Shown piece by piece: positions 1,639 through 32,640 of a stretch of DNA of 32,890 bases; within the stretch, counting starts at the first letter, position 1, and each line of letters starts with the position of its first letter. The notes beneath the pieces are model-generated. The model was not told where the DNA came from. It worked only from the letters and a program-made list of their open reading frames with translations, and searched no databases. The DNA is taken from contig JAIRYV010000022.1 of assembly GCA_031267685.1 (NCBI GenBank), forward strand, positions 1-32,890, written 5' to 3'. Origin of the DNA: Treponema sp. Lineage in GTDB: Bacteria > Spirochaetota > Spirochaetia > Treponematales > Breznakiellaceae. The position numbers were made by a program, and so were the translations under genes.

Positions 1639-3360
1639 ATGCGACATACAGGAGCAAGGATTTTGATTGAAGCCCTGATTGAACAGGGCGTGGATACGGT
1701 GTTTGGGTATCCGGGCGGCAAGGTGCTGGATATTTATGACGAGCTGTACCAGTGCCGGGACCGGATTCGGCATATTCTGGTGAGCCATGAGCAACATGCG
1801 GCGCATGCTGCCGACGGCTATGCCCGCTCAAGCGGCAAGGTGGGAGTTTGCCTTGCCACCTCTGGCCCGGGCGCGACTAATCTCGTAACCGGCATTGCCA
1901 CAGCCTATATGGACTCAGTACCGTTGGTGGCAATCACGGGCAATGTCGGCAGATCACTCTTAGGCAAGGACAGCTTTCAGGAAGTAGACACCGCTGGCAT
2001 CACCATGCCCATTGTTAAGCATAACTGGATCGTAAAAAGTGTAGAAGACCTGGCTGAAATCGTCCGCGAGGCGTTTATCGTGGCTGTTAGTGGCCGCCCT
2101 GGTCCCGTGCTTATCGACATTCCTGCAGACATCAGCGCGCTTGAGGCGGAAGTGCCTCTGATAGGAACGCTGGCGTCGCTCCCGATTCAGGGTGCGCGGG
2201 CATGGCGCCTGTCCCAGCGGAGTCTGAGGCAGACCTTTACGGAGGCTGACATTGACCGCGCTGTTAGTTTACTGGTCAAGGCAAAACGTCCGGCGATTTA
2301 CGCAGGCGGCGGCGTGATCATTTCTGGCGCATCTGCCAGACTGGTCGCACTTGCCGAGCGGCTGGACGCGCCAGTGAGCCTCAGCCTCATGGGGCTGGGA
2401 GCCATGCCATATGAACATCCGCTCTATACCGGCATGGTTGGTATGCACGGAAGTGTGGCGTCTAACAAGGCTATACAGCAGGCCGACCTCCTGATAGCAA
2501 TCGGCGTGCGTTTCTCAGACCGCGTTACTAGTAGTCCCGACAAGTTTGCGAGTAAGGCCAGGGTTTTGCACTTTGACATTGATCCGGCTGAGATTAACAA
2601 AAACATTCAAGCCGAAGTTTCGGTCATTGGGAATATCCACGATACCCTGAGCCATGTGCTTGAGAAGCTCCCGGCAGACATCAAGACCGAGTGGAATGAC
2701 GATATTAGCACATGGAAAAACGAGGTTCCTCATACGCATCACCGGAAAACCGCGCTCTATCCGCGCTTTATCATTGAAGAAACGGCAAAGGCGCTCAGAA
2801 CACTCGACAATGACGCTATTATTGTTACTGACGTTGGGCAGCATCAGATGTGGACAGCGCAGTTCTATCCCTTTTCAAAGCCGCGTTCCTTCCTTACTTC
2901 CGGCGGACTGGGAACCATGGGCTTTGGGCTTGGCGCAGCCTTGGGCGCAAAGGTCGCCAACCCGTTACGTCCGGTTGTGCTTTTCACTGGCGACGGCTGT
3001 TTCCGCATGAACTGCGCTGAACTGGGAACCTTGAGCGCCTATCACTTGCCCGTGCTGCTGGTGGTGTTCAGTAACGGCGTTCTCGGCATGGTGAGGCAGT
3101 GGCAGACTATTTTTTACGAAGGCCGCTACTCGGAAACCAACCTTGACCGTCCGCCTGATTTCGTGAAACTGGCCTCTGCATATAGCGTTGCAGGCTTCCG
3201 CGCTGACAGCGAAGCCAGCTTCATGGCCGCGCTTGAGGCTGCCATGCGGGAACTTGCCACAGGCCGTGCCGCTGTCATTGACGCCCATATCGACAAGGAC
3301 GAGCGCGTATTGCCAATGGTTCCCGGTGGCAAACCCATTGACGAGCAGATTCTGTCGTAG
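1639..3360 (+). CDS. Acetolactate synthase large-subunit-type thiamine-pyrophosphate enzyme. No small-subunit gene is adjacent, so it may be a catabolic ALS or a related TPP enzyme.
   Basis: 574 aa. The N-terminus reads GARILIEALIEQGVDTVFGYPGG. A TPP-binding motif (GDGCFRMN) is present. The whole length is AHAS-like. The ORF track begins at a TTG at 1621, but the ATG at 1639 fits AHAS N-termini better. Confidence 0.85.
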   Translation: MRHTGARILIEALIEQGVDTVFGYPGGKVLDIYDELYQCRDRIRHILVSHEQHAAHAADGYARSSGKVGVCLATSGPGATNLVTGIATAYMDSVPLVAITGNVGRSLLGKDSFQEVDTAGITMPIVKHNWIVKSVEDLAEIVREAFIVAVSGRPGPVLIDIPADISALEAEVPLIGTLASLPIQGARAWRLSQRSLRQTFTEADIDRAVSLLVKAKRPAIYAGGGVIISGASARLVALAERLDAPVSLSLMGLGAMPYEHPLYTGMVGMHGSVASNKAIQQADLLIAIGVRFSDRVTSSPDKFASKARVLHFDIDPAEINKNIQAEVSVIGNIHDTLSHVLEKLPADIKTEWNDDISTWKNEVPHTHHRKTALYPRFIIEETAKALRTLDNDAIIVTDVGQHQMWTAQFYPFSKPRSFLTSGGLGTMGFGLGAALGAKVANPLRPVVLFTGDGCFRMNCAELGTLSAYHLPVLLVVFSNGVLGMVRQWQTIFYEGRYSETNLDRPPDFVKLASAYSVAGFRADSEASFMAALEAAMRELATGRAAVIDAHIDKDERVLPMVPGGKPIDEQILS

Positions 3361-3363
3361 CTT

Positions 3364-3984
3364 TCACCTTTCCGTGAGTGCGCGCCAGGGGTTTTGCCTG
3401 AAGCGGATGAGCAGATACAGCCAGCCAAAGGCAAAACCCGCGAGGTGTGTTAAATGAGCTACGCTGCGCTGAAGCCCGAAGAATGAAGACGCCAGCTCAA
3501 TAATGGTGAAGACTAGCACCATAACTGGCGCACGCATGGGCAGAATCCCCCAGATGGCGATCACCGCATTGGGAAAAAACGTGGCGTAGGCGAGCTGTAC
3601 TGCGAAGATAGCGCCAGACGCGCCCAGAAGCCAGACCGTGTACGAGCCAGTGAGACAGTACACCGCAAGGGAAAAAGCGCCGGCAAGAAAGCCCGTAATC
3701 AGGTAGTAGCAGAGAAACTCAACGCTCCCCGTATACCGTTCAACCTGAGTCCCGAACATGAACAGGGCAAGCATATTAAGCAAGAGGTGGCTGATATTGC
3801 CGTGAGCAAACATATAGGTAAACACTTGCCATACCCATTTATTGCCGATTACCGCCAGAGGGTTCATGGCAAGGTAGACGCTAGTCATTGGGGCAAGCTG
3901 TTGTAGAGCAAAAACTACGACATTGATGCCAATGAGGATCAAGGCTACGTTGCCGGATTGGTAAAAACGATTAACTATTCTCAT
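3364..3984 (-). CDS. Rhomboid-family intramembrane serine protease
   Basis: 206 aa and polytopic. It has the GASGAIF (GxSG) catalytic-serine motif and a downstream AHLTHLAGFAFG histidine helix. It is convergent with the upstream gene, with only 3 nt between stop codons. Confidence 0.85.
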   Translation of the reverse strand: MRIVNRFYQSGNVALILIGINVVVFALQQLAPMTSVYLAMNPLAVIGNKWVWQVFTYMFAHGNISHLLLNMLALFMFGTQVERYTGSVEFLCYYLITGFLAGAFSLAVYCLTGSYTVWLLGASGAIFAVQLAYATFFPNAVIAIWGILPMRAPVMVLVFTIIELASSFFGLQRSVAHLTHLAGFAFGWLYLLIRFRQNPWRALTER

Positions 3985-4096
3985 AGTATGAAGATACGCT
4001 TGTTCTTGACGCTCGTAAAGCCATGATGAAGCACTTCCCTTTCTCTTAGTAGTTTACTATGATATATACACAAGTTTAATAATTAAGGAAGTTTGT

Positions 4097-5287
4097 ATGA
4101 CTGAACGTCAGGTCTATATTGATTATAACGCGACTACGCCTCTCCGTGCGGAGGTCAGAGCTGCTATGGTAACAGATCTCGATGTCTATGGAAATGCATC
4201 GAGTCAGCACGCACACGGGCGTTTAGCTCGTGCGCGGATTGAGGAAGCACGGGCTTCAGTGGGGGCGCTGGTGGGAGCGCCGCCTGATCGTATCATTTTT
4301 ACGTCAGGAGGCTCAGAATCAAACAACACTGTGTTCCAGACCATGCGCCAGCAGGGAACAGCTGAGGATGGGCATGTACTGGGCGGAAGAAGTGAGATTA
4401 TCACAAGCGCCATTGAGCATCCCTGTGTGCTTAACTCAGCCGCATTCCTGAAAAGTCTGGGGTTTAAGGTAACGTTCCTACCGGTTGACGGGCAGGGACT
4501 GGTGAAGCTGGACGCGCTCAAGGCTGCGCTTAACGAAAATACCCTCTTTGTGTCAATAATGATGGCCAATAACGAGATCGGGACCGTGCAGGATATCAAG
4601 GAAATCAGCCGGCTTGTGAAAGAGGCTGGCGCGTTCCTGCATAGCGACGCGGTACAGGCTGTGGGCAAGATTCCGGTGCACGTGGATGAGTTGGGCCTTG
4701 ATTATCTCACTATGTCTGCGCATAAGATTTACGGGCCAAAAGGGGTTGGGGCTTTGTATGTGAGGAAGGGAGCGCCTTTACTTCCCCTTATTCACGGCGG
4801 TCATCAGGAAGACGGGTTCCGTGCTGGAACATACAATAATATCGGCATACTGGGCTTTGGGCTGGCGGCTTCACTGGCGCTTGGGGAACTTGGCTCGTAT
4901 AGCCGGCACACAGCTGCCCTGCGCGACCGGCTGCGGGACGGCTTGCTGAAAAGAGTGCCAGACATCAAGATTAATGGTCATCCCACAGCAGTGCTTCCAA
5001 ACACGCTGAATGTTTCGTTTCCAGGAGCAGAAGGCGAGTCGATTCTGCTTTCAATGGACATTGAGGGTATTGAAGCATCGACCGGTTCAGCCTGCGCTTC
5101 AGGCAGCCTTGAGCCATCGCATGTACTCATGGCTATCGGCGTTGGGCCAGAGCTTGCCCACGGTTCCATCCGCTTCAGTCTTGGCTGGAACCTGAATGTG
5201 GACGATATTGACTATATCCTGCAAAAACTGCCGCCCATTATCATGCGGCTTCGTGCCATGTCCACTCTACGAAAGAAGGAGGAATAA
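4097..5287 (+). CDS. nifS: Cysteine desulfurase (NifS/IscS family, class V aminotransferase)
   Basis: 396 aa. PLP-lysine region SAHKIYGPKGVGALYVRK. C-terminal active-site Cys loop ASTGSACASGSLEPSHVL. AAGGAAG RBS before the ATG. Confidence 0.9.
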   Translation: MTERQVYIDYNATTPLRAEVRAAMVTDLDVYGNASSQHAHGRLARARIEEARASVGALVGAPPDRIIFTSGGSESNNTVFQTMRQQGTAEDGHVLGGRSEIITSAIEHPCVLNSAAFLKSLGFKVTFLPVDGQGLVKLDALKAALNENTLFVSIMMANNEIGTVQDIKEISRLVKEAGAFLHSDAVQAVGKIPVHVDELGLDYLTMSAHKIYGPKGVGALYVRKGAPLLPLIHGGHQEDGFRAGTYNNIGILGFGLAASLALGELGSYSRHTAALRDRLRDGLLKRVPDIKINGHPTAVLPNTLNVSFPGAEGESILLSMDIEGIEASTGSACASGSLEPSHVLMAIGVGPELAHGSIRFSLGWNLNVDDIDYILQKLPPIIMRLRAMSTLRKKEE

Positions 5288-5288
5288 T

Positions 5289-5882
5289 ATGGCTGGCTGG
5301 TTGTATTCAGATACGGTGAAAGAGCATTTCACCAATCCCCGGAACGCACTATTCGAGGATGAAGCGGATTTCCCCTGCGATGCACGTGGACAGACCGGAA
5401 ATATCAAGTGTGGGGATCAGATGCTCATGCTCCTCAGAATCAAGGACGATGTCATTACCGACGTGCGCTGGAAAACCTATGGCTGCGCTAGCGCTATTGC
5501 CTCGACAAGTATGCTGTCCGAGACCATCAAGGGCATGAACATCAGGGAGGCGTACTCGATTAGGCCGGAAGACCTGGTGCAAAAGCTCGGAGGTCTGCCC
5601 GATTACAAGATACATTGCTCGGTATTGGGGGACAAGGCGCTGCGAGCAGCTATTGATGACTATCTTGAAAAAACCGGACGCGCCGGTATGCTCAAAGAAG
5701 CGGCAACCACGATCTGCCAGTGTTTAGGCATCACTGATAAGGACATTGAAAACGCTTTTCAGAATGGCGCCCACAACTGGGAACAGCTCCAGCAGGCCAC
5801 CAAGATCGGTACAGTCTGTGGAAACTGTAAAGAGAAAGCCCTAGAACTATTGCACGAGTTCGTTCATATCTACGGTATTTGA
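5289..5882 (+). CDS. nifU: NifU-type Fe-S cluster scaffold: an IscU-like N-domain plus a BFD-like [2Fe-2S] C-domain
   Basis: The ATG at 5289 is preceded by AAGGAGGAATAAT, and it is 1 nt after the nifS stop. IscU motifs are present (CGDQMLM, GCASAIASTSM, HCSVLGDKALRAAIDDY). The C-terminal portion is CQCLGITDKD...CGNCK. The ORF track's 5196 start is a spurious 5' extension overlapping nifS. Confidence 0.9.
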   Translation: MAGWLYSDTVKEHFTNPRNALFEDEADFPCDARGQTGNIKCGDQMLMLLRIKDDVITDVRWKTYGCASAIASTSMLSETIKGMNIREAYSIRPEDLVQKLGGLPDYKIHCSVLGDKALRAAIDDYLEKTGRAGMLKEAATTICQCLGITDKDIENAFQNGAHNWEQLQQATKIGTVCGNCKEKALELLHEFVHIYGI

Positions 5883-5928
5883 CACGACTGCTTATAACAA
5901 GAGCCGCCTTCTGGCGGCTCTTCGTGTC
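5881..5928. terminator. Bipartite hairpin between the convergent nifU and 5928..8888 genes. Inner stem agagccgcc / ggcggctct (5900-5921, loop ttct). Outer stem gacacga / tcgtgtc.
   Basis: Perfect 9-bp GC-rich inner stem flanked by a perfect 7-bp outer stem, positioned between two convergent stop codons. T-tracts are weak (ttcgtgtc on plus; ttgttataag on minus). Confidence 0.45.
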
Positions 5929-8888
5929 TAAAGCCTTTCGGTCAGGTCATTCGCGTTAAGCATGACCGGCTGACCACCAGCACTTTGTATCAGGATAATA
6001 TCGCCCTGAAAACTGGCCGTCGCATAAGGGTGTATCTGGGTCGCGGATTTCGCGGCAAGCGGGATAACGCCATCGGCAATCGCAGCAGTATCAAAGCGGG
6101 CAAGATAAAGCGCACTGCCTGAACTGACAATGGTGTATATGCTAGCCTCCCGAACCCAGAGCGGCGCGTCAGCATACAGAGAATCAACACCATTGTCGCT
6201 GACCTGTGCGCCAACACCCATGTTTTCCTGATCAATTTGAATAAGCTGGACAAGATTGCCCGGCAATGTCAGTGTCGCAAAAACCTCCTGCTCTTCTCCC
6301 TCACCAATGGCTATTAAGGAACGCGCATTGATGGTGGTGAGGTTTGAAATATTGGTCCTTGCGCCTGTCGCAAGGTTAAGCTCTATGAGAACACCTAAGG
6401 GCGAATCAGACTGCGTCAACTCAATCATAATAACTTTTGTTCCACCCTCATCTTCACTAGCAGTAAAGCCACCCGCCACTGCCTGTCGCGCTGCCTCTTC
6501 CTCAGCCACCTGTTGCGCTGCCTCCGCTTCGGCTGCAAGCCGCGTAGCTTCTTCCGCCGCCTGCCGTGCTATCTCAGCCTGTCGTACAGCCTCTTCCGCC
6601 GCTTGTCGTGCAAGCTCCGTCTGTTGCGCTGCCGCGTCTGCGCTTTGACCCGGGACATTCGCCGCTGCCGCTTGCGCTGTATCAGCCTGCCGTGCCGCTT
6701 CTTCCGCCGCGTCTTGTGCTATCTGCGCCTGCTGCGCCACCGCTTCATCCTGTGGCACGATGTTTTCCGCTGCCTGCTGCGCTATCTCGGCCTGTCGCGC
6801 CGCTTCTTCCGCCGCTTGCCGTGCTATCTCAGCTTGTCGCGCTGCCTCTCCCGCTGCCTGCTGCGCTATCTCGGCCTGTCGTGCCGCTTCTTCCGCCGCC
6901 TGCTGCGCTATCTCCACCTGACGCGCTGCCTCTTCCTCAGCCGCCTGTTGCGCTGCTTCCGCTTCGGCTGCAAGCCGCGTAGCTTCTTCCGCCGCTTGCC
7001 GTGCTATCTCAGCCTGACGTGCCGCCTCTTCAGCCGCTTGCCGCGCTATCTCAGCCTGCTGCGCCACTGCTTCATTCTCAGGTGCCGCTTCATCTGCCGC
7101 CTGCCGTGCTATCTCCGCCTGTCGCGCCGCCTCTTCCGCTGCTTGCCGCGCTATCTCAGCCTGCTGCGCCACTGCTTCATTCTCAGGTGCCGCTTCTTCT
7201 GCCGCCTGCCGTGCTATCTCGGCCTGACGCGCCGCCTCTTCAGCCGCTTGTTGCGCTATCTCAGCCTGTTGCGTTGCCTCTTCATCCGCCGCCTGCTGAG
7301 CCACTGCCTCAGCCTGTTGCGTTGCTGCTGCCTCAGTCGCCTGCTGAGCTGCTGCCTCAGCCTGTTGTGTTGCCGCTTCATCCGCCGCCTGCTGAGCCGC
7401 TGCCTCAGCCTGCTGCGCTGCCGCTTCATCCGCCGCCTGCTGCGCTGCCGCTGCCTCAGCCGCCTGCTGCGCTATCTCAGCTTGCCGTGCGGCTGCCGCT
7501 TCGGCAGCAAGCCGCGAGGCTTCCTCCGCCGCTTGCCGTGCTATCTCAGCCTGTCGCACAGCCTCTTCAGCCGCTTGCCGCACAAGCTCTGTCTGCTGCG
7601 CTGCCGCATCTGCCCCCTGACGCGGGATACTCGCCGCCGCCACTTGCGCTGCATCAGCTTGACGCGCCGCTTCGTCAGCCGCACTTTGCGCTATCTCAGC
7701 CTGTCGCGCCGCTGCTTCATTCTGCGGCATAACGTCTTCCACTGCCTGTTGCGCTCTCTCAGCCTGACGCGCCGCCTCTTCAGCCGCACCTTGCGCTATC
7801 CCAGCCTGTCGCGCCGCTTCGTCAGCCGCCTGACGCGCTATCTCGGCCTGCCGCGCCGCCTCTTCAGCCGCCTGACGCGCAGCTTCCACTTGACGCGCTG
7901 ACTCGGCCCGTCGCTCAGCTTCCGCAGCAATGCCGCCATTCTGATCAATAGCAATATCCTCACGATCGCTTTGAGCATCAAGCATCTTCCGCTCTGCCAT
8001 ACGCTCCGCCTCATCGGCCAGCCTACGCTGTTCTTCCAACGCCCTTTCCCGATCAGCAAGCTCATTCTCAATACGCCGCGCCTCTTCCGGCGACGCCTGT
8101 TGCACCCGCCGACGCTCCGCCGCAATCCTGGCTTCCTCCACCGCAATAGCTTCACGTAAATCCGCAGCCCGCGCCTCAGCCTCGTCCGCCTCACGCTCCT
8201 TTAACTCAACCATCTCTTTCCGTACGTCAAGCCCCTGATTCGGATCACGCCGCAACTCCTCAAGCACGCCCTCATCGCTCACCGCCGATGTGTCTATGGC
8301 ACTCAATGACCCAGGACTCGCGTTACCAAGCGGGATTACAATGAGCGTCCGCCCTGGCCATTCATCAAAACGTACAGAAAGACCAACACGATCAGCGCTC
8401 AAGTCTCCCAGAACCGCTTGTTTATAACGAGAACTGAAAAAGTCCCAGTTACCCCGATAAAATGCGTTATAAATCGTAATATATTGGGCAAGTAACCGCG
8501 CATCTGCCGCCGAGTAGTTATAGGCCCCTTCAAGATAGCCCTGTATGATGAGCCTCAGATTCCGTATGTGGTCTACTCCCACGCCAGACCCTAAGCCAAA
8601 AATGTCTGCATCTATCCGCTCTCCTTCTGGAGCTGTAACCGAATGAATCACAAAGTACCGATTCATAGCGCCTGAACGAGTCGCCCCACGCCGAACCGCA
8701 AGACCCTGTTCATAACCAATGTTCCGAATCTGCGCAACCGTATCAATCCGCGTAACCGGCCCCGTATAATTATAGAACTCAATCGACCCTTGCCCCTGCT
8801 GTAACTCATTGGTATTCACCTGCGCACATAACAATGACGCAAGCAACCCCATCAGTGCAGCGCAAACATAGCTAATCCGTTTATTCAT
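5928..8888 (-). CDS. Large secreted or surface protein (986 aa). It has an N-terminal signal peptide (possibly a lipoprotein), a globular N-domain of about 300 aa, a central Ala/Gln/Glu/Arg-rich coiled-coil-like tandem-repeat region of about 450 aa, and a C-terminal domain of about 170 aa.
   Basis: MNKRISYVCAALMGLLASLLCAQ signal sequence. AAAGAGG RBS upstream. Central repeats of the AARQAEIA(R/Q)QAAEEA type are encoded by near-identical DNA repeats. Confidence 0.85.
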   Translation of the reverse strand: MNKRISYVCAALMGLLASLLCAQVNTNELQQGQGSIEFYNYTGPVTRIDTVAQIRNIGYEQGLAVRRGATRSGAMNRYFVIHSVTAPEGERIDADIFGLGSGVGVDHIRNLRLIIQGYLEGAYNYSAADARLLAQYITIYNAFYRGNWDFFSSRYKQAVLGDLSADRVGLSVRFDEWPGRTLIVIPLGNASPGSLSAIDTSAVSDEGVLEELRRDPNQGLDVRKEMVELKEREADEAEARAADLREAIAVEEARIAAERRRVQQASPEEARRIENELADRERALEEQRRLADEAERMAERKMLDAQSDREDIAIDQNGGIAAEAERRAESARQVEAARQAAEEAARQAEIARQAADEAARQAGIAQGAAEEAARQAERAQQAVEDVMPQNEAAARQAEIAQSAADEAARQADAAQVAAASIPRQGADAAAQQTELVRQAAEEAVRQAEIARQAAEEASRLAAEAAAARQAEIAQQAAEAAAAQQAADEAAAQQAEAAAQQAADEAATQQAEAAAQQATEAAATQQAEAVAQQAADEEATQQAEIAQQAAEEAARQAEIARQAAEEAAPENEAVAQQAEIARQAAEEAARQAEIARQAADEAAPENEAVAQQAEIARQAAEEAARQAEIARQAAEEATRLAAEAEAAQQAAEEEAARQVEIAQQAAEEAARQAEIAQQAAGEAARQAEIARQAAEEAARQAEIAQQAAENIVPQDEAVAQQAQIAQDAAEEAARQADTAQAAAANVPGQSADAAAQQTELARQAAEEAVRQAEIARQAAEEATRLAAEAEAAQQVAEEEAARQAVAGGFTASEDEGGTKVIMIELTQSDSPLGVLIELNLATGARTNISNLTTINARSLIAIGEGEEQEVFATLTLPGNLVQLIQIDQENMGVGAQVSDNGVDSLYADAPLWVREASIYTIVSSGSALYLARFDTAAIADGVIPLAAKSATQIHPYATASFQGDIILIQSAGGQPVMLNANDLTERL
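6480..7910. repeat. Intragenic near-perfect tandem DNA repeats with periods of about 48 and 108 bp, encoding the coiled-coil repeat region of the 986-aa protein
   Basis: For example, 7024-7115 and 7133-7224 are near-identical, as are 6486-6560 and 6925-7000. The ORF track's plus-strand Arg/Cys/Leu-rich and Pro-rich ORFs here are frame artefacts of the repeats. Confidence 0.85.
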
Positions 8889-10295: not shown

Positions 10296-10555
10296 CCTTT
10301 TCCGAGCTTAGGAACGTATCCTTTCCTAAGCTCGGAGTGTACCCTTTCCTAGCTTAGGAGTGTACCCTTTCCTAGTATTAGGAAAGCACCCTTTCCTAAT
10401 ACTAGGAGTGTACCCTTTCCTAGTACTAGGAAAGCACCCTTTCCTAATACTAGGAAAGCACCCTTTCCTAATACTAGGAAAGCACCCTCTCCGAGCTTAG
10501 GAAAGCACCCTAAACTCGGCTAAGAGCGTATCTTCTCCGAGCGCTGGGAAAGTAT
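10296..10555. repeat. Tandem direct-repeat array 2: about 11 copies of a 23-24 bp unit (consensus cctttcctaatactaggaaagcac). Each unit is itself an imperfect palindrome (cctttcct-N6-aggaaag).
   Basis: Read directly. Central copies are perfect or nearly perfect and flanking copies are degenerate (ccgagcttagg variants). The array is intergenic, 210-470 bp upstream of the dxr start. Confidence 0.9.
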
Positions 10556-11987: not shown

Positions 11988-13661
11988 CTACGCCTCATGC
12001 CCAGTGTCAGACACCACGCTTTGCGCCGCGTGTCCGGTGTCAGACACCACGCTTTGCGACAGGGCGTCCATAGTACCCAAGAACCCAGGCAGCTCAAGAC
12101 CCGCCTGTGCCGCAATGTCGTGGAGGGGCGGCAGTGTTTTAACCAAATTACGCATGAAGTTCGCGGTAGTACTGGAATCAGCGCTGGGGTTATCCCACAC
12201 AGTGAGCTTATCGATCTTGATATTTTTAAGTGCTTCGGTTTGCAGTTTAACCAGGTCTTCCAACTTTTCAACGAGGAGCAGTGTTGCTGCGCTCTTAGCG
12301 TCACTGTTTGCCGCCTTAACCAGTGTCTCATACCCTGCGGCCTTTGCGTCTAGCACTTTTTTGAGGCCTTGTGCCTCAGCTGCTTTGACGAGCAGTATTG
12401 CGTCAGCCTCACCTTGTGCAAGTAGGCGCTGCTGTTCAGCCCGTGCTGCTGCGTCTATTTCGAGCTTACGCTTCTCGATTTCACGAGGTACAACCTGCTC
12501 AACCTCCAGGCGCCGCTGTTCAGCAAGGGCCTTTGCCTGCTGAATTTCTGCGAATGCGGACTGCTGCGCTATTTCTCCGCGCTGTTTTGCCTCAGCTTCA
12601 CGCTCGGCAAGTGTGGCGTTTGATATGGCAATCTCAGCCTTTGCGGTGTTTTCACCCTCAACTGCCTGTGCATTATACTCAGCGGTCTGTATCCGCTGTT
12701 CCCTGCCAAATTCAGCTACTTTCACCTGCTTTTCCTTGTCAAGTTCAGCAATGCGTACCTGCTGTTCAATACTAAACGACGTGGTCTTTACTTGCTGTTC
12801 CTTGCTGTATTCAGCTACCTTCACCTGCTGTTCGCTCTGATACTGAGCTTTCTTGACCTCCCGTTCAGTGGCGAACTGGGCAAGCTGCACTTGTTGTTCC
12901 TTATCAAGTTCAGCGGTTTGTACCTGTTGTTCTTTGTTAAACTGGGCGATCTGAACCTGCTGTTCTTTGGTGAACTGTGCCACCCGTATTTGCTGTTCCT
13001 TACGTGCCTCTGCCTCGCCAATAGCGCCCTTCTTGTCCTGCTCCGCCACATCAACCTTTGCCTGGTTAATAGCTGTGAGCGCGGCTTTTTTACCAATGCT
13101 CTCGATATAGCCTGACTCGTCGGTGATGTCGGTAACGTTCACGTTGATGAGGCAGAGGCCGATTTTATCAAGCTCAAGGTCGATGTTCTTACGGATTGCG
13201 TCGAGGAAACGTTCTCGATCTTGATTGATCTGCTCAATCGTGAGAGAGGCTACCGTGAGTCTGAGTTGTCCGAGTATGATTTCCGTTGCCATTGACTCGA
13301 TTGTGTCGCGGTTCAGTCCCAGCAGGCGCACTGCTGCTGAGTTCATACTTTCTTCCTCAGTGGCAATGGCCACGGTAAAAGTGCTTGGCACGTTGACGCG
13401 GATGTTTTGCTGAGATAAGGCGCCCTTGAGGGGGATGTTAATCGTCATGGGCGTAAGGTCAAGATAGTTGTAATCTTGAATGAGCGGCCAGATGAATGCC
13501 CCGCCTCCGTGCATACAGCGCGACGACTTCCCGCCCCCGACTTTCCCGTACACCACAAGAATCTGGTTTGACGAACACCGTTTATACCTGCTTGCCAGAA
13601 ACAGGATAAGTACGAACAAGAATACCGCGAGAAATGAGGTTCCAATGAGAACAAAGTTCAT
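11988..13661 (-). CDS. Flotillin / SPFH (band-7) family protein, YqiK-like
   Basis: 557 aa. N-terminal TM helix followed by an SPFH domain (ILVVYGKVGG...GGGAFIWPLIQDYNYLDLTPMTINIPLKGALSQQNIRVNV). Long EQQVQ/EA-rich coiled coil. The last 20 aa are a tandem duplication (AAQSVVSDTGH x2). Confidence 0.9.
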   Translation of the reverse strand: MNFVLIGTSFLAVFLFVLILFLASRYKRCSSNQILVVYGKVGGGKSSRCMHGGGAFIWPLIQDYNYLDLTPMTINIPLKGALSQQNIRVNVPSTFTVAIATEEESMNSAAVRLLGLNRDTIESMATEIILGQLRLTVASLTIEQINQDRERFLDAIRKNIDLELDKIGLCLINVNVTDITDESGYIESIGKKAALTAINQAKVDVAEQDKKGAIGEAEARKEQQIRVAQFTKEQQVQIAQFNKEQQVQTAELDKEQQVQLAQFATEREVKKAQYQSEQQVKVAEYSKEQQVKTTSFSIEQQVRIAELDKEKQVKVAEFGREQRIQTAEYNAQAVEGENTAKAEIAISNATLAEREAEAKQRGEIAQQSAFAEIQQAKALAEQRRLEVEQVVPREIEKRKLEIDAAARAEQQRLLAQGEADAILLVKAAEAQGLKKVLDAKAAGYETLVKAANSDAKSAATLLLVEKLEDLVKLQTEALKNIKIDKLTVWDNPSADSSTTANFMRNLVKTLPPLHDIAAQAGLELPGFLGTMDALSQSVVSDTGHAAQSVVSDTGHEA

Positions 13662-13712: not shown

Positions 13713-14252
13713 TTAGCTTTCAAAGCGTACAACGGCTACTGTGTGAGAATCAATCACCCGTGTAATGAGGGTTTTTTCAAACGAGGGTATGAGTTCTGCG
13801 GTGTCAGACACTGCGTCGGTCTGATGCTTGACACCGTTGAGGACAAAGGAGATTCGTCCTTTTCCCTGAGTTGGGATACGGAGATACACCTCAGCCTCAC
13901 AGCCGACCGCGTCTTTCAAGGAGAACCGTGCGCCGCTGCTCCGTAGTTGCATTGCTCCATAAAAGACGAGCGCGGTACTCAGCATGGCGACAAGCCCTGC
14001 ACCTGCGCCTGCGAGTAGGCTCAACGGCAGGTTAAGGCCGAACTGTGCCTGTGCAGCGAGTCCGCCCCAGCCGAACATGGCAGTAAAGCCGGTGAGTGAA
14101 TTGAGCGACAGCAGCCTGAACGCCCCGTTTCCTGCCTCAGCTATGTCTGTATCGCCGCTGTCATCATCGCCGCCTGCGCCTGCAATGAAGAGAATCACGC
14201 GCAAAAGGAAAAACACCGAGCCAAACACTGCTGCTCCCCAGAAACAAAGCAT
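13713..14252 (-). CDS. NfeD-like (YqiJ-type) membrane protein, the usual partner of flotillin
   Basis: 179 aa. Several TM helices are followed by a C-terminal beta-rich soluble domain (GKGRISFVLNGVKHQTD). It sits immediately upstream of the flotillin gene, in the conserved gene order. Confidence 0.75.
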   Translation of the reverse strand: MLCFWGAAVFGSVFFLLRVILFIAGAGGDDDSGDTDIAEAGNGAFRLLSLNSLTGFTAMFGWGGLAAQAQFGLNLPLSLLAGAGAGLVAMLSTALVFYGAMQLRSSGARFSLKDAVGCEAEVYLRIPTQGKGRISFVLNGVKHQTDAVSDTAELIPSFEKTLITRVIDSHTVAVVRFES

Positions 14253-14431
14253 AAAACGCCCCCTTATACCTACTTGACCTATTCTCTGTATTCATACAAT
14301 ATAGCCTTATGTTATGGTTATCGCAAGTGTTTTACTATTGAATGATATCATACGCTCATCCATGTCGTGCCAACTGGTCGTTCAAGGTTATACACAGCGA
14401 TTATCTTAAAAAAGCTGAGAAGAGTTATTAT

Positions 14432-15277
14432 ATGTATTGGAAGTATCCAGAAACTGATTTAGAGCGTCATTTAAGCGCATTGCTGAACAGACGCATCCAG
14501 AGCTGTACGCATAAGTCCGCAGGCCCGGAGTTGGCGCGGCTTCACAGTGTGGAAGACTTTGTCGCCGAGCTTGAGCATGGCGGTGTTCAGCTTGAGGGGT
14601 TTACGACAACAAGGCGCGAGGAATGCTCGAACAGACTTCGGCCGAAGTCTGTTCACACCATCTACACCATAACCTGTGATGCGCTTCCTGCGTCTGAGTG
14701 TTTTGTGTGCATTGAGTGTGGGAGCGTTTCTGCAACGAAGTTGTCTTCTGAGACTGGCGAGTGTTACAGTTCTCCCGTGCAATTTTATGCGCGTCTATAT
14801 GACGCAATGATGTATTATGGTCAAACGATATATGATAATGATTTTGGTTTTGTGTTTAGGTTTCTGGAACGCTTTGAGGAGATTGCCTCTGAAGTGCCTC
14901 TTATCCGCGCAAAGTTCCAGAAGCAGCGGAAAATTAAAGAGCTTACGCAGGACAGTATTAAGGCGTGGTTTGTTCAGATTTGTGAGGAATTGGGTTGTCC
15001 CTATTTTATAGAAGTAAAGAGAGTGCAGAGCAAACTGTATGTGCGGCTTAATGAGAAAACACAGCTTGAGATAGTAGTTCCGCACGCTACCTTTCAGAAA
15101 GTGATGCCTGAACTGAGCGGTATTATTCAGACATATACTGCTCTGTTTGAAAGCACTAAGGCGCGTGTGCTTATGAGCAACGTTGCGCCTGGTAATTACT
15201 GGCGGGAACCCGGAAAAAAGCAGGATGAGGGCAAGTATGAAGATGACGATGATGAAGATGACGATGGTGAGGTCTGA
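14432..15277 (+). CDS. Hypothetical protein (281 aa from the ATG at 14432) with a Cys cluster (CFVCIEC...GEC) and a poly-acidic C-terminal tail (YEDDDDEDDDGEV). It is the first gene of an operon with the AAA+ and VWA genes.
   Basis: Long ORF followed tightly by the next gene (24-nt gap). No recognisable family. The 14342 start given in the track has no RBS, so the first in-frame ATG at 14432 (MYWKYPETDLERHL) is preferred. Confidence 0.6.
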   Translation: MYWKYPETDLERHLSALLNRRIQSCTHKSAGPELARLHSVEDFVAELEHGGVQLEGFTTTRREECSNRLRPKSVHTIYTITCDALPASECFVCIECGSVSATKLSSETGECYSSPVQFYARLYDAMMYYGQTIYDNDFGFVFRFLERFEEIASEVPLIRAKFQKQRKIKELTQDSIKAWFVQICEELGCPYFIEVKRVQSKLYVRLNEKTQLEIVVPHATFQKVMPELSGIIQTYTALFESTKARVLMSNVAPGNYWREPGKKQDEGKYEDDDDEDDDGEV

Positions 15278-15301
15278 AATGTACGGATATGTACGGGAAA
15301 A

Positions 15302-16381
15302 ATGGAGCGGCTTATGGGAGTAAATGTTAATGTCACTGAGTTATTACACGTTATAGAACTCACGCCATGTCATCAGAATATTATGCTGGTGGGAAAGCAT
15401 GGCATTGGCAAGTCGCGGATTATCGCGGACTTTTTTGAGAAACAGGGAAAGCCGGTGATAACGCTTTTTCTGGGACAGATGAGCGATCCTGGTGATATTA
15501 TTGGGCTTCCAGCGCTTGACGCTACAGTGGGAAAAACCGATTTTCGCCCGCCCTGGTGGTTTCCGCTTGATGGTAATCCTATTGTGTTGTTTCTCGACGA
15601 ATTGAACCGTGCTCGGCCTGAGATTCTGCAATGCGTGATGGACCTGACGCTTAACAAAATGCTTGCCGGGAAAAAACTGCCGGCGGGAAGCCAGATTATT
15701 TCCGCAGTGAATGAGGGTGAGGAATATCAGCTTACTGATCTTGATCCAGCGCTGGTGTCGCGTTTTAATGTGTATTATTTTGTTCCCTCGCCGGCGGAGT
15801 GGCTTTTGTGGGCAGAGCGAAATAATATCGACAAACGGGTTGTCGCCTTTATCGAGAAAAACAGTGACGTTCTTGACAGTGAGGCTTCGATTGACGCTGG
15901 TCTGAGCAAAACGCCTGATCGCCGCGCATGGGAGCGTGTCTCGCAGATTATCGCGCCGCTGGATCACATAGACCGGATTGTCGAGAAAATTATCGCTGGT
16001 GTGGTGGGGAATAGTGCGGCGCTCAAGTTCGCGCTATTTACGCGGGAAAACACGGGCCTGAACCCACTGTTGATTTTAACCCATTTTGAACAGAACAAGC
16101 AAAGGCTTGAAAACCTTGCTATTCACGAACTCACGCCTCTCAACGAGGGCTGTTTCCGCATGATAGAGCTTGAGCGGAATCAGAAAAAAGTGAAGGGATA
16201 TGTGAGTAACCTTGAGCACTATATCAAGTGGCTTATTGAAAACAAGCGGAATGAAGTGATTGCGCACTGGGCAACGCTGTACCAGTCTTCGGCCTATCCG
16301 CAGGCAAAGGTCGCTATACTCAGCAACTCGCCCTCTATTTTCCAGAGTATTGTGGGATTTATCAAGGATATTAAAATATAA
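15302..16381 (+). CDS. MoxR-like AAA+ ATPase (AAA_5-type)
   Basis: Walker A GKHGIGKS, Walker B IVLFLDELNRA, and arginine-finger region DPALVSRF. An alternative start at 15314 (MGVNVNV) has a better GGAG RBS. Confidence 0.85.
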   Translation: MERLMGVNVNVTELLHVIELTPCHQNIMLVGKHGIGKSRIIADFFEKQGKPVITLFLGQMSDPGDIIGLPALDATVGKTDFRPPWWFPLDGNPIVLFLDELNRARPEILQCVMDLTLNKMLAGKKLPAGSQIISAVNEGEEYQLTDLDPALVSRFNVYYFVPSPAEWLLWAERNNIDKRVVAFIEKNSDVLDSEASIDAGLSKTPDRRAWERVSQIIAPLDHIDRIVEKIIAGVVGNSAALKFALFTRENTGLNPLLILTHFEQNKQRLENLAIHELTPLNEGCFRMIELERNQKKVKGYVSNLEHYIKWLIENKRNEVIAHWATLYQSSAYPQAKVAILSNSPSIFQSIVGFIKDIKI

Positions 16382-16415
16382 CGGCAGCTTTGCTGCTAGT
16401 GCGAATTGGTAAAGC

Positions 16416-17768
16416 ATGGGGTTAAATATGGCTAAAAAGGCGCGGAAAACTATTTCAGCAGAGGAGCGTATACGGCTCGTGAGCGATGCGTGGTATATCA
16501 GGGAACCCGCGTTGTTTATGGTATTTACGTCGCACATATTCACCGCAAATCCATTGATTCGGGGCATACGAACTGGGCATGGCCACGTTGAGTATAACCC
16601 GGCGTATCTGGCCGCGTTAAGCGCGAAGGAAGCTGAGGAAGCACTGAAAGCCGAAATGATCCGCATACTCTTGCGCCACCCTTATCGCTGGCCACCGCGC
16701 AGCGCGGAAGTTTCATACATAGCAAGCAATATCACCCTGAACGAATATTACCGTTTCAGTTCTTTACCCCATCGCGTTTCTGATTTCTGGGATGATCCTG
16801 AATATACAAAGCGGAACTTCGAGTTTTATTACCGTGAATATCTTGAACTGGCGCAGCAACAGGCGGGAACCATGGGCGATGAGCAGGGCAATGGCAAAAA
16901 TCAGCGTGCGCAAAACAATAATAGCCAGGCGCCCGGCAGCGCGGGAAACAGTGGCGGCGAAAACAGTGATAGCGGCGACGGCGCGGGAAACAGTGGCGGT
17001 AACAGTAGTGCGAAAAACAGTGGCGACGGTGCGGGAAATAACGGCGACAGTACGGAAAACAACGGCAACGAGACACGCGCCCATAACGCGGAAAACGCGG
17101 CGCTTTGGACGAACGACGATTTTATGGACATGAAAGTGCGTGAAGTCATTGAATTTACCCAGCAGAATATGCTGTCATGGGGAACTATACCTGGGGAACT
17201 TGCGCAAAGCATACTCGCCACACTCAAGCCAATACTCGACTACCGCAAAGTTCTGAGTGGCTTTCGCGCTACTGTGCTGTCAAGCAACATGACGCTCACC
17301 CGCTTTCGTCCCAGCCGCCGCTATGGTTTTGTCTACATGGGTAAAAAAAGCCGCTTCACTACGCGCCTCTTAATCGGCGTTGATGTGAGTAGTTCCATCA
17401 GCGATAAAGAAATAAACCTGTTTTATTCAACGGTCAACCATTTTTTCAAATATGGCATAGAAGAAACCGACGTTCTGCAATTTGACGCTGACTTACAGGG
17501 TGAGCCGCTCCTCATAAAAAAAGCGCGAAAGGAAATTCTGGTAAAAGGTCGGGGCGGAACCTGTTTTCAGCCCATCATTGATTATTTTGCGGCAAACCGG
17601 AATACCTACAACGGCCTTATCATCTTCACTGATGGTTACGCGCACCAGCCCACTATATCGCTGCGGGACACGTACAAAGTTCTTTGGATATGCAGCAATA
17701 AACAAAGCTACGAAGCGCATCAGAACTGGATGAGTAAGCAAGGGCGCTGTTGCTGGATACAGGCGTGA
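16416..17768 (+). CDS. VWA-domain protein of the COG3864/DUF2201 type: an N-terminal peptidase-like region plus a C-terminal VWA domain, separated by a Gly/Asn/Ser-rich low-complexity insert
   Basis: MIDAS-like motif LLIGVDVSSSIS and later IIFTDGYAHQP. The N-region (GHGHVEYNPAYLAAL...MIRILLRHPYRW) resembles the DUF2201_N family, but no HExxH is evident. The gene is 34 nt downstream of the AAA+ gene. Confidence 0.8.
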   Translation: MGLNMAKKARKTISAEERIRLVSDAWYIREPALFMVFTSHIFTANPLIRGIRTGHGHVEYNPAYLAALSAKEAEEALKAEMIRILLRHPYRWPPRSAEVSYIASNITLNEYYRFSSLPHRVSDFWDDPEYTKRNFEFYYREYLELAQQQAGTMGDEQGNGKNQRAQNNNSQAPGSAGNSGGENSDSGDGAGNSGGNSSAKNSGDGAGNNGDSTENNGNETRAHNAENAALWTNDDFMDMKVREVIEFTQQNMLSWGTIPGELAQSILATLKPILDYRKVLSGFRATVLSSNMTLTRFRPSRRYGFVYMGKKSRFTTRLLIGVDVSSSISDKEINLFYSTVNHFFKYGIEETDVLQFDADLQGEPLLIKKARKEILVKGRGGTCFQPIIDYFAANRNTYNGLIIFTDGYAHQPTISLRDTYKVLWICSNKQSYEAHQNWMSKQGRCCWIQA

Positions 17769-17800
17769 TAGTCGCGGGGCGATTTGGTTTATTCATACAC

Positions 17801-17830
17801 TTGACCTATTTGAAAAAGAAATGCTAGACT
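17801..17830 (+). promoter_or_regulatory. Putative promoter: TTGACC (17801-17806), an 18-nt spacer, then TAGACT (17825-17830), upstream of the ABC binding-protein gene. A GGGAGAG RBS lies at 17848-17854.
   Basis: Hexamer matches and a position 29 nt upstream of the start codon. Confidence 0.35.
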
Positions 17831-22722: not shown

Positions 22723-22970
22723 AGAGAGTTGTACATCTCAAATCAGAGAGTTGTACATCTCAAACCAGAGAGTTGTACATCTCAAATCAGAGAGTTGTAC
22801 ATCTCAAACCAGAGAGTTGTACATCTCAAATCAGAGAGTTGTACATCTCAAATCAGAGAGTTGTACATCTCAAACCAGAGAGTTGTACATCTCAAACCAG
22901 AGAGTTGTACATCTCAAATCAGAGAGTTGTACATCTCAAATCAGAGAGTTGTACATCTCAAACCAGAGAG
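22723..22970. repeat. Tandem direct-repeat array 3: 11 copies of the 22-bp unit agagagttgtacatctcaaa(t/c)c. The unit contains the near-palindrome gagTtgtacaTctc.
   Basis: Read directly. The only variation is t/c at one position. The array lies in the 5' region of the HU-like gene. The three ORF-track ORFs here are frame artefacts. Confidence 0.95.
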
Positions 22971-32092: not shown

Positions 32093-32640
32093 GGAGTGGG
32101 AAGCCTCTTCTAACTAGAAGAAGGCGGCTCTTCTAACTAGAAGAAGTCAGCTCTTCTAACTAGAGTGAGATGACTCTTCTAACTAGAAGAAGGCGACTCT
32201 TCTAACTAGAAGAAGGCGACTCTTCTAACTAGAAGAATGTGGCTCTTCTAACTAGAGTGGGAAGCCTCTTCTAACTAGAAGAAGGCGACTCTTCTAACTA
32301 GAATGAGATGACTCTTCTAACTAGAAGAAGGCGACTCTTCTAACTAGAATGAGATGACTCTTCTAACTAGAAGAAGGCGGCTCTTCTAACTAGAGTGAGA
32401 TGACTCTTCTAACTAGAATGAGATGACTCTTCTAACTAGAAGAAGGCAACTCTTCTAACTAGAATGAGATGACTCTTCTAACTAGAAGAAGGCGATTCTT
32501 CTAACTAGAATGAGATGACTCTTCTAACTAGAATGAGATGACTCTTCTAACTAGAAGAAGGCGCTTACCTACCTTATGACAAGACTCTTCTAACTAGAAG
32601 AAGGCGCTTACCTACCTTATGACAAGACTCTTCTAACTAG
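32093..32640. repeat. Tandem direct-repeat array 4: 22 copies of a 23-bp unit, each an invariant 13-nt core ctcttctaactag plus a 10-nt variable segment (aagaaggcgN, a[ag]tgagatga, aagaagtcag, aagaatgtgg, agtgggaagc). The last 2 units carry an identical 20-bp insertion.
   Basis: Read directly. It starts 1 nt after the comEC stop and ends at a CTAG immediately before the putative IS left end. Confidence 0.95.

Follow-up and report, generated by a model that had tools for sequence, protein, structure and literature searches.

We describe a three-gene operon from a Treponema in which a MoxR-type AAA+ ATPase and a VWA protein with a degenerate zincin-like domain are encoded next to a third protein, here called G1. 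Judged by its sequence, G1 is a member of a previously undescribed, fast-evolving protein family, and as far as gene order can tell this family is genomically locked to the AAA_5/DUF2201 pair. Our main reading, to which we give a probability of about 0.5, is that the operon encodes a self-contained, horizontally spread remodelling machine together with G1 as its dedicated partner, with conflict as its most likely field of action. We tentatively infer a role in inter-genomic conflict (defence or mobile-element function) rather than in enzyme cofactor insertion.

The operon and its surroundings

The window, that is the whole stretch of 32,890 nucleotides that was analyzed, comes from a termite-gut-type Treponema genome. 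The reading frames, coordinates and gaps given in the preliminary description were all verified, and every feature below lies on the + strand. Gene 1 (G1, 14432-15277) encodes 281 aa and is a 'hypothetical protein' at NCBI (MDR1398818.1). Gene 2 (15302-16381, 359 aa, MDR1398819.1) encodes an AAA_5 (MoxR-type) AAA+ ATPase and gene 3 (16416-17768, 450 aa, MDR1398820.1) a protein with a DUF2201_N (zincin-like) and a DUF2201 (VWA) domain. The genes are separated by 24 nt (gene 1/gene 2) and 34 nt (gene 2/gene 3). The NCBI annotation contains the same three genes but places the starts of genes 2 and 3 four codons further downstream; because homologue alignments agree with these later starts, the true starts are probably 15314 (355 aa) and 16428 (446 aa). 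An alternative upstream ATG at 14342 could lengthen G1. At homologous loci, the junctions between module genes overlap or span 1-15 nt.

A terminator-like hairpin follows directly 3′ of the gene 3 stop (17770-17794) and a promoter-like site lies 5′ of the ABC-transporter genes (17801-17830); being products of a consensus scan only, both count as weak evidence. The flanks in the window are of housekeeping type (flotillin/NfeD, GNAT, ABC sugar transporter). In this neighbourhood no nor, cbb or cox genes lie near the operon, no phage or integrase genes adjoin the module, and no direct repeats or att sites were found flanking the cassette. Rfam and tRNA scans of the whole window returned no matches.

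The ATPase and its VWA co-factor

The assignment of gene 2 as a MoxR-like AAA+ ATPase holds, with a Pfam AAA_5 (PF07728) match of 33.6 bits against a cut-off of 22 (E 4.6e-8) and a match to phrog_1297 at E 2e-47; the Pfam bpMoxR match stays below threshold (12.5 bits, cut-off 27). Walker A (GKHGIGKS, 15392-15415), Walker B (LFLDE, 15587-15601), the putative sensor-1 Asn (N137 in AVN, 15701-15718) and the putative Arg finger (R154 in SRF, 15755-15769), the last two assigned by position, are invariant in the subfamily alignment A6. The Walker A motif had been called divergent, which it is not, since GKHGIGKS fits the canonical GxxxxGK[ST] and is invariant in the subfamily. By these motifs gene 2 is an AAA_5/MoxR-type ATPase with its predicted catalytic machinery fully intact. 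Its C-terminal region of about 190 aa is conserved and matches no known family. The best PDB matches are the AAA modules of Midasin (E 1e-8 to 2e-10).

Gene 3 had been described as a VWA protein of the COG3864/DUF2201 type, and both of its Pfam domains score above their thresholds: DUF2201_N with 51.9 bits (cut-off 23.2, E 1.1e-13) and DUF2201 with 46.5 bits (cut-off 26.4, residues 319-433, E 4.7e-12). It also matches phrog_1314 (E 1.6e-42). The VWA domain (DUF2201 match, 17370-17714) has retained its MIDAS motifs, namely DVSSS (17382-17396; D323-x-S325-x-S327), GRGGT (17547-17561; T382) and FTDG (17625-17636; D406), and DxSxS, GRGGT and TDG are kept in essentially all homologues. Gene 3 has the features of a VWA co-factor of gene 2 with a predicted intact MIDAS metal site.

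The N-terminal region of gene 3 indeed lacks HExxH, as first noted. In place of HExxHxxxxH it carries AEMIRILLRH (residues 79-88, 16650-16679), which aligns with HEIEHVWRHH of phage PEV2 gp35; both His of HExxH are gone and the second has become Arg. The pattern xExxRxxLxH is present in 86 of 86 cellular homologues examined, while N4-like and other phage homologues retain HExxH. This loss of both His, shared by the entire cellular subfamily, strengthens the earlier guess that the peptidase-like domain may be inactive. Gene 3 also contains the reported Gly/Asn/Ser-rich low-complexity insert, though its extent is 79 aa (residues 147-225, 16854-17090, 56% G/N/S) rather than 75. Imperfect DNA repeats at 16934-17079 encode it, its length varies or it is missing among homologues, and it is probably a disordered linker.

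The G1 family and its linkage to the pair

The proposal of a three-gene MoxR-VWA system with an uncharacterised first component stands, since neither of the two refuting conditions named with it was borne out. Genes 2 and 3 have Pfam matches and G1 has none. Searches of Pfam, NCBIfam, PADLOC and PHROGs with G1 gave no significant match, consistent with a protein of no recognisable family; its best PADLOC match is OloA at E 0.053 (PADLOC-DB 2.0.0), and a profile-versus-PDB sequence search returned nothing. We define the G1 family by the residues of its C-terminal module together with its position beside an AAA_5/DUF2201 pair. As the query, G1 of the window belongs to the family by construction; the linkage to the pair is an independent result. 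An AlphaFold2 model built from 139 sequences has an antiparallel alpha+beta fold, without resemblance to P-loop, propeller or FtsH folds and without a recognisable nucleic-acid-binding fold. It supersedes a first model from 8 sequences that was dropped, the fold matches of which are meaningless at its pLDDT of 56.

The conserved C-terminal module of G1 (14873-15202), delimited by conservation and model secondary structure, is predicted to consist of a long helix (residues 148-187), a three-strand beta-meander (191-217) and a helix (218-241), ending in an extended tail, KARVLMSNVAPGNYW (residues 243-257). Almost all positions conserved family-wide fall within this module: K164, K167, W179, Y191, L202, F221, Q222, P226 and I232, and in the extended tail K/R245, I248, N250 and W257. 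Most profile matches span the C-terminal module alone. In other proteins this module occurs duplicated or joined to additional domains, either LRR_5 or TPR together with a zinc ribbon. The module is preceded by a variable N-terminal alpha+beta module (residues 1-147, 14432-14872) with low and patchy alignment occupancy and conservation, which is swapped for a BspA-type LRR_5 domain in two relatives, P0119 and P0125. The acidic tail noted at the C-terminal end, EGKYEDDDDEDDDGEV (residues 266-281, 15227-15274), is present and clade-specific, being found in most of the closest homologues and missing from the homologue P0008 and from distant members; a 15-nt tandem repeat at 15237-15270 lies in its coding part.

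A zinc ribbon had been suggested for the Cys cluster of G1 and is rejected, as these Cys residues lack conservation. The CFVCIEC stretch (14699-14719) sits in the variable N-terminal module. Only C90 is invariant, and this among 8 close homologues alone, while C93 and C96 vary and no Cys of the stretch is conserved family-wide. A zinc ribbon requires two conserved CxxC-type Cys pairs, which G1 lacks, and residues 90-96 form a beta-strand in the model.

The expectation that G1 homologues travel with the AAA_5/DUF2201 pair is borne out by close relatives (loci L001, L002 and L010) as well as by members of only ~20-25% identity (P0030, P0141, P0062, P0119), all of them beside the pair. In a G1-seeded metagenome scan, which used an alignment narrower than the family-wide one, all 15 loci with enough sequence have the AAA gene immediately downstream of G1. 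An AAA-seeded genome scan detected G1 at 46 of 80 loci, in one to three copies upstream or downstream of the pair; the other 34 are without detectable G1 and some of these carry other small genes. In hhalign, neither these small genes nor the genes that recur upstream (c5/c6 membrane proteins, c14/c19, c33 and others) show a relationship to the G1 profile, and so they are not hidden G1 members. The AAA and VWA genes themselves are neighbours in 86 of 88 loci; of the remaining two, one is a contig end. The arrangement is far beyond chance, because homologues of all three genes share it across many independent contigs. Identity falls from AAA to VWA to G1, from 90%, 82% and 65% at L010 to ~52%, ~40% and 20-25% at distant loci, so that G1 diverges much faster than the gene 2 ATPase.

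The module is found in Spirochaetes, Bacteroidales, Clostridia, a Helicobacter and a Methanomethylophilaceae archaeon, with AAA identities of ~50-67% across these hosts, and a one-genome-per-species collection contains at least 551 matches to the DUF2201-type pair. Flanking genes are unrelated between loci, 814 genes falling into 421 clusters, which together with the AAA identities across hosts speaks for mobility of the module. A survey of 146 neighbour-cluster representatives (PADLOC and Pfam), descriptive and without a control set, gave a mixture of housekeeping and defence-type genes. The latter include PDC-S01, PDC-S10, PDC-S48/DEDDh, IetA-like, DpdE/ZorD-like SNF2, WYL and GmrSD; many of the neighbours at other loci are housekeeping genes too.

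Proposed mechanism and rival explanations

An AAA_5 ring combined with MIDAS capture has established precedent in Rea1/Midasin, CbbQO and NorQD. In Rea1/Midasin, which acts in eukaryotic ribosome assembly, the MIDAS domain binds a partner and detaches it from a complex. The operon shares the AAA_5 ring and MIDAS domain with Midasin, however Midasin is one giant polypeptide with six AAA modules and a UBL-domain ligand, whereas here motor and MIDAS domain reside in two proteins and the partner is of an unrelated family. By analogy with other MoxR proteins, gene 2 would form an ATP-hydrolysing ring onto which gene 3 would dock, its MIDAS gripping the partner, and the dead peptidase cleft of gene 3 may bind an extended peptide non-catalytically. 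The C-terminal module of G1 (helix, beta-meander, helix and K-x-x-I-x-N...W tail) would be the handle seen by the machine, and the hypervariable N-terminal module, an LRR in some relatives, would determine which target is sensed or bound. The result would be ATP-powered remodelling or release of G1 or its ligand.

Among the closest known systems are the MoxR-vWA 'ternary' conflict systems (Kaur, Burroughs, Iyer & Aravind 2020; PMC7159879), in which the third protein is variable and rapidly evolving (types VMAP, iSTAND, FtsH and beta-propeller), vWA-fused peptidase domains are often catalytically dead, and the suggested logic, as here, assigns peptide capture to the vWA and remodelling of the complex to MoxR. 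The operon likewise combines a MoxR AAA+ protein, a vWA protein with a dead peptidase domain and a variable, fast-evolving third protein. Yet G1 is not VMAP, iSTAND, FtsH or beta-propeller (no Pfam match; model fold), the zincin-like domain is N-terminal to the VWA, the array of C-terminal effectors is absent, and the hosts are gut anaerobes rather than multicellular bacteria. The operon is therefore none of the published ternary systems. A more specific version of the conflict reading, that G1, the AAA_5 ATPase and the pseudo-zincin-VWA protein form an unrecognised defence or counter-defence system common in gut Bacteroidales, Spirochaetes and Clostridia, is possible, though we would bet against it. 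In such a system the G1 paralogues, which are hypervariable and in some cases include LRR or TPR modules, would be sensors or decoys for invader proteins, the MoxR/MIDAS machine would turn binding into an ATP-driven response, and HExxH-bearing N4 gp24/gp25 would represent this machinery on the phage side. The defence-type genes among the neighbours count in favour of our main reading. Counting against it are the lack of an obvious effector (toxin, nuclease) in the three core genes, the housekeeping flanks in the window and many housekeeping neighbours elsewhere, and the absence of a PADLOC match for any of the three proteins (PADLOC-DB 2.0.0). Further points against it are the 34 of 80 AAA-seeded loci without detectable G1 and the absence across G1 of a conserved acidic residue able to serve as a MIDAS ligand.

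The pair could instead be a cellular or prophage copy of N4 gp24/gp25-type genes that serves an element rather than host defence, aiding the element's replication, its takeover of the host or counter-defence; G1 would then be an accessory specific to the element. This is rather unlikely, despite strong PHROG matches and tblastn matches in 207 phage records, mostly N4-like. N4 gp24 (AAA_5) and gp25 (vWFA/'putative metallopeptidase'), PHROG 1297 and 1314, belong to the same two families in the same order, AAA first and then DUF2201_N plus DUF2201 with intact MIDAS. Both count among the 14 genes that form the core of N4-like phages, and they are located in the early/middle region beside replication genes (PMC4193335), a setting unlike that of the operon. 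The pair was found on 12 IMG/VR contigs, of which 5 show the degenerate motif, and an integrase is inserted within the G1 paralogue of one locus, L003. Against this, the phage proteins are only 24-32% identical to those of the window (N4 gp24/gp25-type copies 24-26%), and the N4-like copies keep HExxH (HEIEH), are without a G1-family gene and have an unrelated small ORF between both genes. The module has no adjoining phage or integrase genes in the window and at most loci, flanking direct repeats are absent, and a plasmid collection gave distant matches only (at most ~30% identity).

Were G1 only a client, the folding, assembly or disassembly of its oligomer (structural or storage) being chaperoned by the pair without any sensing, its fast divergence, paralogue expansion and LRR/TPR swapping would be unusual, and the pair would have to do without it at the loci that lack G1; we regard this as improbable. 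Processing of nucleic-acid or protein damage, such as DNA-protein crosslink repair, would have the pseudo-zincin/VWA protein and AAA+ motor extract or present adducts, with G1 as a basic DNA- or protein-binding adaptor. At about 9 loci the operon includes small active zincins (YgjP/SprT/WLM-like c7 with HELCH; SprT-like c26 with HEYAH), ATP-dependent DNA ligase, SNF2 helicase, DEDDh exonuclease, PLD nuclease, FtsK-gamma protein and WYL regulator genes recur as neighbours, and the G1 family is basic (median pI 8.8) with K164 and K167 near-invariant. Such neighbours are found in a minority of loci and are absent from the window, they also fit a defence island, and the G1 model has no fold of the kind an adaptor for nucleic acids would suggest, which makes this explanation very unlikely. 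Least probable of all, at long odds, is a chaperone for cofactor insertion or enzyme reactivation, with its enzyme encoded elsewhere. NorQ/NorD, CbbQ/CbbO, CoxD/CoxE and RavA/ViaA do share the two-gene AAA+/VWA-MIDAS architecture, and CbbQ and NorQ are weak PDB matches of gene 2 (E 0.003-0.005). Unlike these, the operon has a VWA protein with an N-terminal zincin-like domain, which gives no PDB match at E<=1 as single sequence or profile, a dedicated G1 partner and no adjacent target enzyme; no target enzyme gene is conserved near the module in ~90 loci, no NCBIfam equivalog matches the operon genes, and the distribution is patchy and crosses phyla. The identification with NorQ/NorD or CbbQ/CbbO that the preliminary description had raised as a counter-case thus falls away.

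Few of the AAA+ machines that are still poorly understood are as widespread as MoxR-VWA pairs, and the literature searched contains no functional description of the AAA_5/DUF2201 pair or of G1. The tie between this pair and a dedicated, fast-evolving, structurally novel partner offers a first concrete handle on the substrate of the machine and adds a protein family and domain not described before, represented by the C-terminal module of G1. Because a Porphyromonas isolate and a Helicobacter isolate that carry the operon are in culture, experiments are tractable. If the conflict reading is true, the operon would represent a new class of immune-like system in human, ruminant and termite gut bacteria and would hint at the function of two orphan core genes of N4.

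Organization of the operon and its surroundings

Comparative analysis shows a conserved, self-contained operon with three parts: an intact AAA_5 motor; a VWA protein that is MIDAS-competent and bears a conserved, dead zincin domain; and a dedicated partner family that evolves fast, here called G1. The window comes from a metagenome-assembled genome of Treponema sp. (32.9-kb contig). Its three genes lie on the plus strand: G1 (14432-15277; 281 aa; NCBI MDR1398818.1, 'hypothetical protein'), gene 2 (15302-16381; ORF of 359 aa; MDR1398819.1, 'AAA family ATPase', 355 aa) and gene 3 (16416-17768; ORF of 450 aa; MDR1398820.1, 'VWA-like domain-containing protein', 446 aa). The ORF coordinates agree with the spacings of 24 and 34 nt given in the preliminary description, and the slightly later NCBI starts of genes 2 and 3 match the N-termini of aligned homologues. 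Consensus scans weakly indicate a terminator-like hairpin 3′ of gene 3 and a promoter-like site 5′ of the downstream ABC-transporter genes.

The flanks are housekeeping, with GNAT, flotillin/SPFH and NfeD-like genes upstream on the minus strand and a sugar ABC transporter downstream. The flotillin/SPFH gene (11988-13661, minus strand), in whose product there are 'KEQQVQ...'-type peptide repeats and the C-terminal SVVSDTGH motif is duplicated, is paired with the NfeD-like membrane protein gene (13713-14252, minus strand), and this left flank is conserved in two homologous loci (L003 and L010). Four apparently intergenic tandem arrays of 21-24-nt units (1-118, 10299-10511, 22723-22970 and 32105-32640) contain 5.6, 9, 11.3 and 22 copies, with identity reaching 100%, and in two of the arrays the units are palindromic; none matches Rfam, and a CRISPR-like nature is ruled out because spacers are absent. 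Elsewhere in the window a 986-aa Borrelia_P83/100-like ORF (5928-8888, minus strand) contains in-frame 42-, 105- and 435-nt repeats at 6482-7898, in the region of highest GC (0.59-0.65) and strong negative AT skew.

Gene 2 scores above the Pfam threshold for AAA_5. Its Walker A motif, GKHGIGKS, previously read as divergent, is canonical and, like Walker B (DE), N137 and R154, invariant in the subfamily alignment. The only clear PDB relatives are Midasin AAA modules (E 1e-8, or 2e-10 with a profile), and the ~190 conserved C-terminal residues match no known family.

In Pfam, gene 3 hits both DUF2201_N and DUF2201, and alignment shows its MIDAS residues (D323-x-S-x-S327, T382, D406) to be intact. 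The suspicion that its peptidase-like domain lacks HExxH and may be inactive is borne out: at the position where the N4 gp25-like homologue of Pseudomonas phage PEV2 has HEIEHVWRHH, gene 3 has AEMIRILLRH. The pattern xExxRxxLxH holds without exception across 86 homologous cellular loci; the first His is gone and the second replaced by an invariant Arg, while the Glu and last His are retained. Judged from sequence, the zincin domain is thus a conserved pseudo-peptidase rather than a decaying one. The Gly/Asn/Ser-rich insert noted earlier is present at residues 147-225, spanning 79 aa rather than 75; it is encoded by imperfect repeats and varies in length among homologues.

The G1 family and its linkage to the AAA/VWA pair

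G1 has no significant match in Pfam, NCBIfam, PADLOC or PHROGs. Close homologues retrieved by word-indexed search numbered just 8. When a profile was run against 1.84 billion cluster representatives, 212 proteins scored E ≤ 1e-3, of which 75 reached E ≤ 1e-10; most are of 220-260 aa and align mainly over residues ~135-260. Conserved family-wide are K164, K167, W179, Y191, L202, F221, Q222, P226 and I232, together with a tail comprising K/R245, I248, N250 and W257. The zinc ribbon proposed for the Cys cluster does not hold, since C90 alone is invariant in close homologues and the family as a whole conserves no Cys. The acidic tail is real and limited to the closest clade; no acidic position is conserved across the family. 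The conserved C-terminal module is fused to cytoplasmic BspA-type LRRs in two members (P0119, P0125), followed by TPR and a zinc ribbon in P0016, and duplicated in P0025 and P0050. Identities to the window for AAA, VWA and G1 are 90%, 82% and 65% in L010, ~65%, ~52% and ~32% elsewhere in the Spirochaetes, and ~52%, ~40% and ~20-25% in Bacteroidales; by this measure G1 evolves far faster than its partners.

The expectation that G1 homologues accompany the AAA+/VWA pair was upheld for close relatives, for distant members and in a metagenome scan seeded with G1 sequences. The G1-AAA_5-DUF2201 operon recurs with the window's synteny in L002 and L010, and at another site, beside uvrC, in L001; G1 is present as two tandem paralogues in both L002 and L003. 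In L003 (2958-4619), whose contig ends before any AAA gene, a tyrosine-integrase gene lies 3′ of a truncated second paralogue, which suggests that the operon took up a mobile element that cut this paralogue short. Distant members (17-25% identity) also adjoin the pair: P0030 (L005, L006), P0062 (L009), the LRR fusion P0119 (L102) and, 3′ of the VWA gene, P0141 (L007). The sole possible exception, P0016 (L103), lies on a contig of 3.4 kb and is followed by a TPR/zinc-ribbon protein. Seeding with G1 alone yielded 22 metagenomic loci; the AAA gene lies immediately 3′ in all 15 with sufficient downstream sequence, and in the other 7 the sequence stops within ~170 nt of G1.

A scan with the AAA alignment, using one genome per species, returned at least 551 confirmed matches, and the best 80 were examined. 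Their hosts are Spirochaetes, Bacteroidales and Clostridia living in termite, rumen and human guts, along with a Helicobacter and an archaeon of the Methanomethylophilaceae. Carriers of the operon include Porphyromonas sp. HMSC065F10 (L039). AAA and VWA genes adjoin in 86 of 88 loci (AAA-seeded and earlier loci combined), and G1-family ORFs were detected in 46 of these best 80, in one to three copies upstream or downstream. Apart from G1, AAA and VWA we found no conserved neighbour (421 clusters for 814 neighbour genes), and no other recurrent upstream gene has detectable kinship with G1. The AAA genes of Helicobacter burdigaliensis, a campylobacterote (L080), and of the archaeon (L083) are ~51-52% identical to that of Treponema, which points to horizontal transfer between gut organisms.

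Several loci depart from the basic arrangement. The order VWA gene end, G1, AAA in L121 (1-1907) suggests a tandem pair of system copies. L092, a putatively viral IMG/VR contig, has four co-directional ORFs of 240-304 aa 5′ of the AAA gene (3821-7901); one of them, and a 183-aa ORF on the minus strand just upstream (3155-3706), match the G1 profile weakly, and the locus may be an expanded G1-like array. In L080 a gene for a 733-aa BspA-type LRR protein lies immediately upstream. Six Bacteroidales loci without G1 (L043, L055, L061, L063, L070, L071) have two overlapping genes for small membrane proteins (~170 and ~206 aa, without Pfam family) abutting the AAA gene upstream, and a seventh, L029, has the 170-aa gene alone; these proteins may be an alternative third component.

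Neighbouring genes and phage relatives

Small zincins of YgjP/SprT/WLM type (cluster c7) or SprT-like type (c26, HEYAH) lie inside the operon in ~9 loci; the c7 copy of L078 has HELCH and that of L074 lacks HExxH. They stand between AAA and VWA genes in L074, L078, L081, L082 and L088, and between VWA and G1 in L050 and L060; such stand-alone zincin variants occur in some Bacteroidales and Treponema. They may provide in trans the peptidase activity lost by the VWA protein. Recurrent neighbours include an SNF2 helicase matching DpdE/ZorD models, an ATP-dependent DNA ligase, a DEDDh exonuclease (PDC-S48), a PLD nuclease, a metallophosphoesterase (PDC-S10), a 377-aa PDC-S01 protein, an IetA-like AAA protein, WYL regulators and GmrSD; many other neighbours are plain housekeeping genes, and as the survey had no control set the list records occurrence and is no claim of enrichment.

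The pair has phage relatives. Genes 2 and 3 strongly match phrog_1297 (2e-47) and phrog_1314 (1.6e-42), respectively, and tblastn hits of the VWA protein fall in 207 phage records, chiefly N4-like, where the counterpart of the pair is gp24/gp25, two of the 14 N4-like phage core genes, without assigned function (PMC4193335). IMG/VR contigs carry both zincin types, degenerate (n = 5) and HExxH (n = 6).

Relation to known systems and a proposed role

The AAA/VWA pair belongs to the already known, functionally uncharacterised DUF2201/COG3864, N4 gp24/gp25-like family. With CbbQ and NorQ only at E ~3e-3 in the gene 2 PDB search, and no PDB sequence relative found for gene 3, the operon is not of the NorQ/NorD or CbbQ/CbbO type, a match that the preliminary description had named as refuting its reading, nor of the CoxDE type. 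In outline it resembles the four published MoxR-vWA ternary systems, but their defining third component is VMAP, iSTAND, FtsH or a beta-propeller protein, and G1 is none of these. Searches of the literature turned up no functional account of either DUF2201 proteins or G1. What distinguishes the operon is G1, a new protein family joined to a known pair family.

By analogy with established MoxR/VWA and Midasin mechanisms (summarised in PMC7159879), the AAA ring and VWA protein would remodel G1 or a G1 ligand. The conserved C-terminal module and tail of G1, which together span residues 148-257, would serve as the docking handle, with specificity coming from the variable N-terminal module or from the LRRs. 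A role in inter-genomic conflict or for a mobile element is unproven, given the lack of an obvious effector and of a PADLOC match and the housekeeping context in the window; it is nevertheless favoured over enzyme maturation by the spread across phyla, the flanks unrelated between loci, the paralogue expansion and domain swapping, the rate gradient and the phage relatives.
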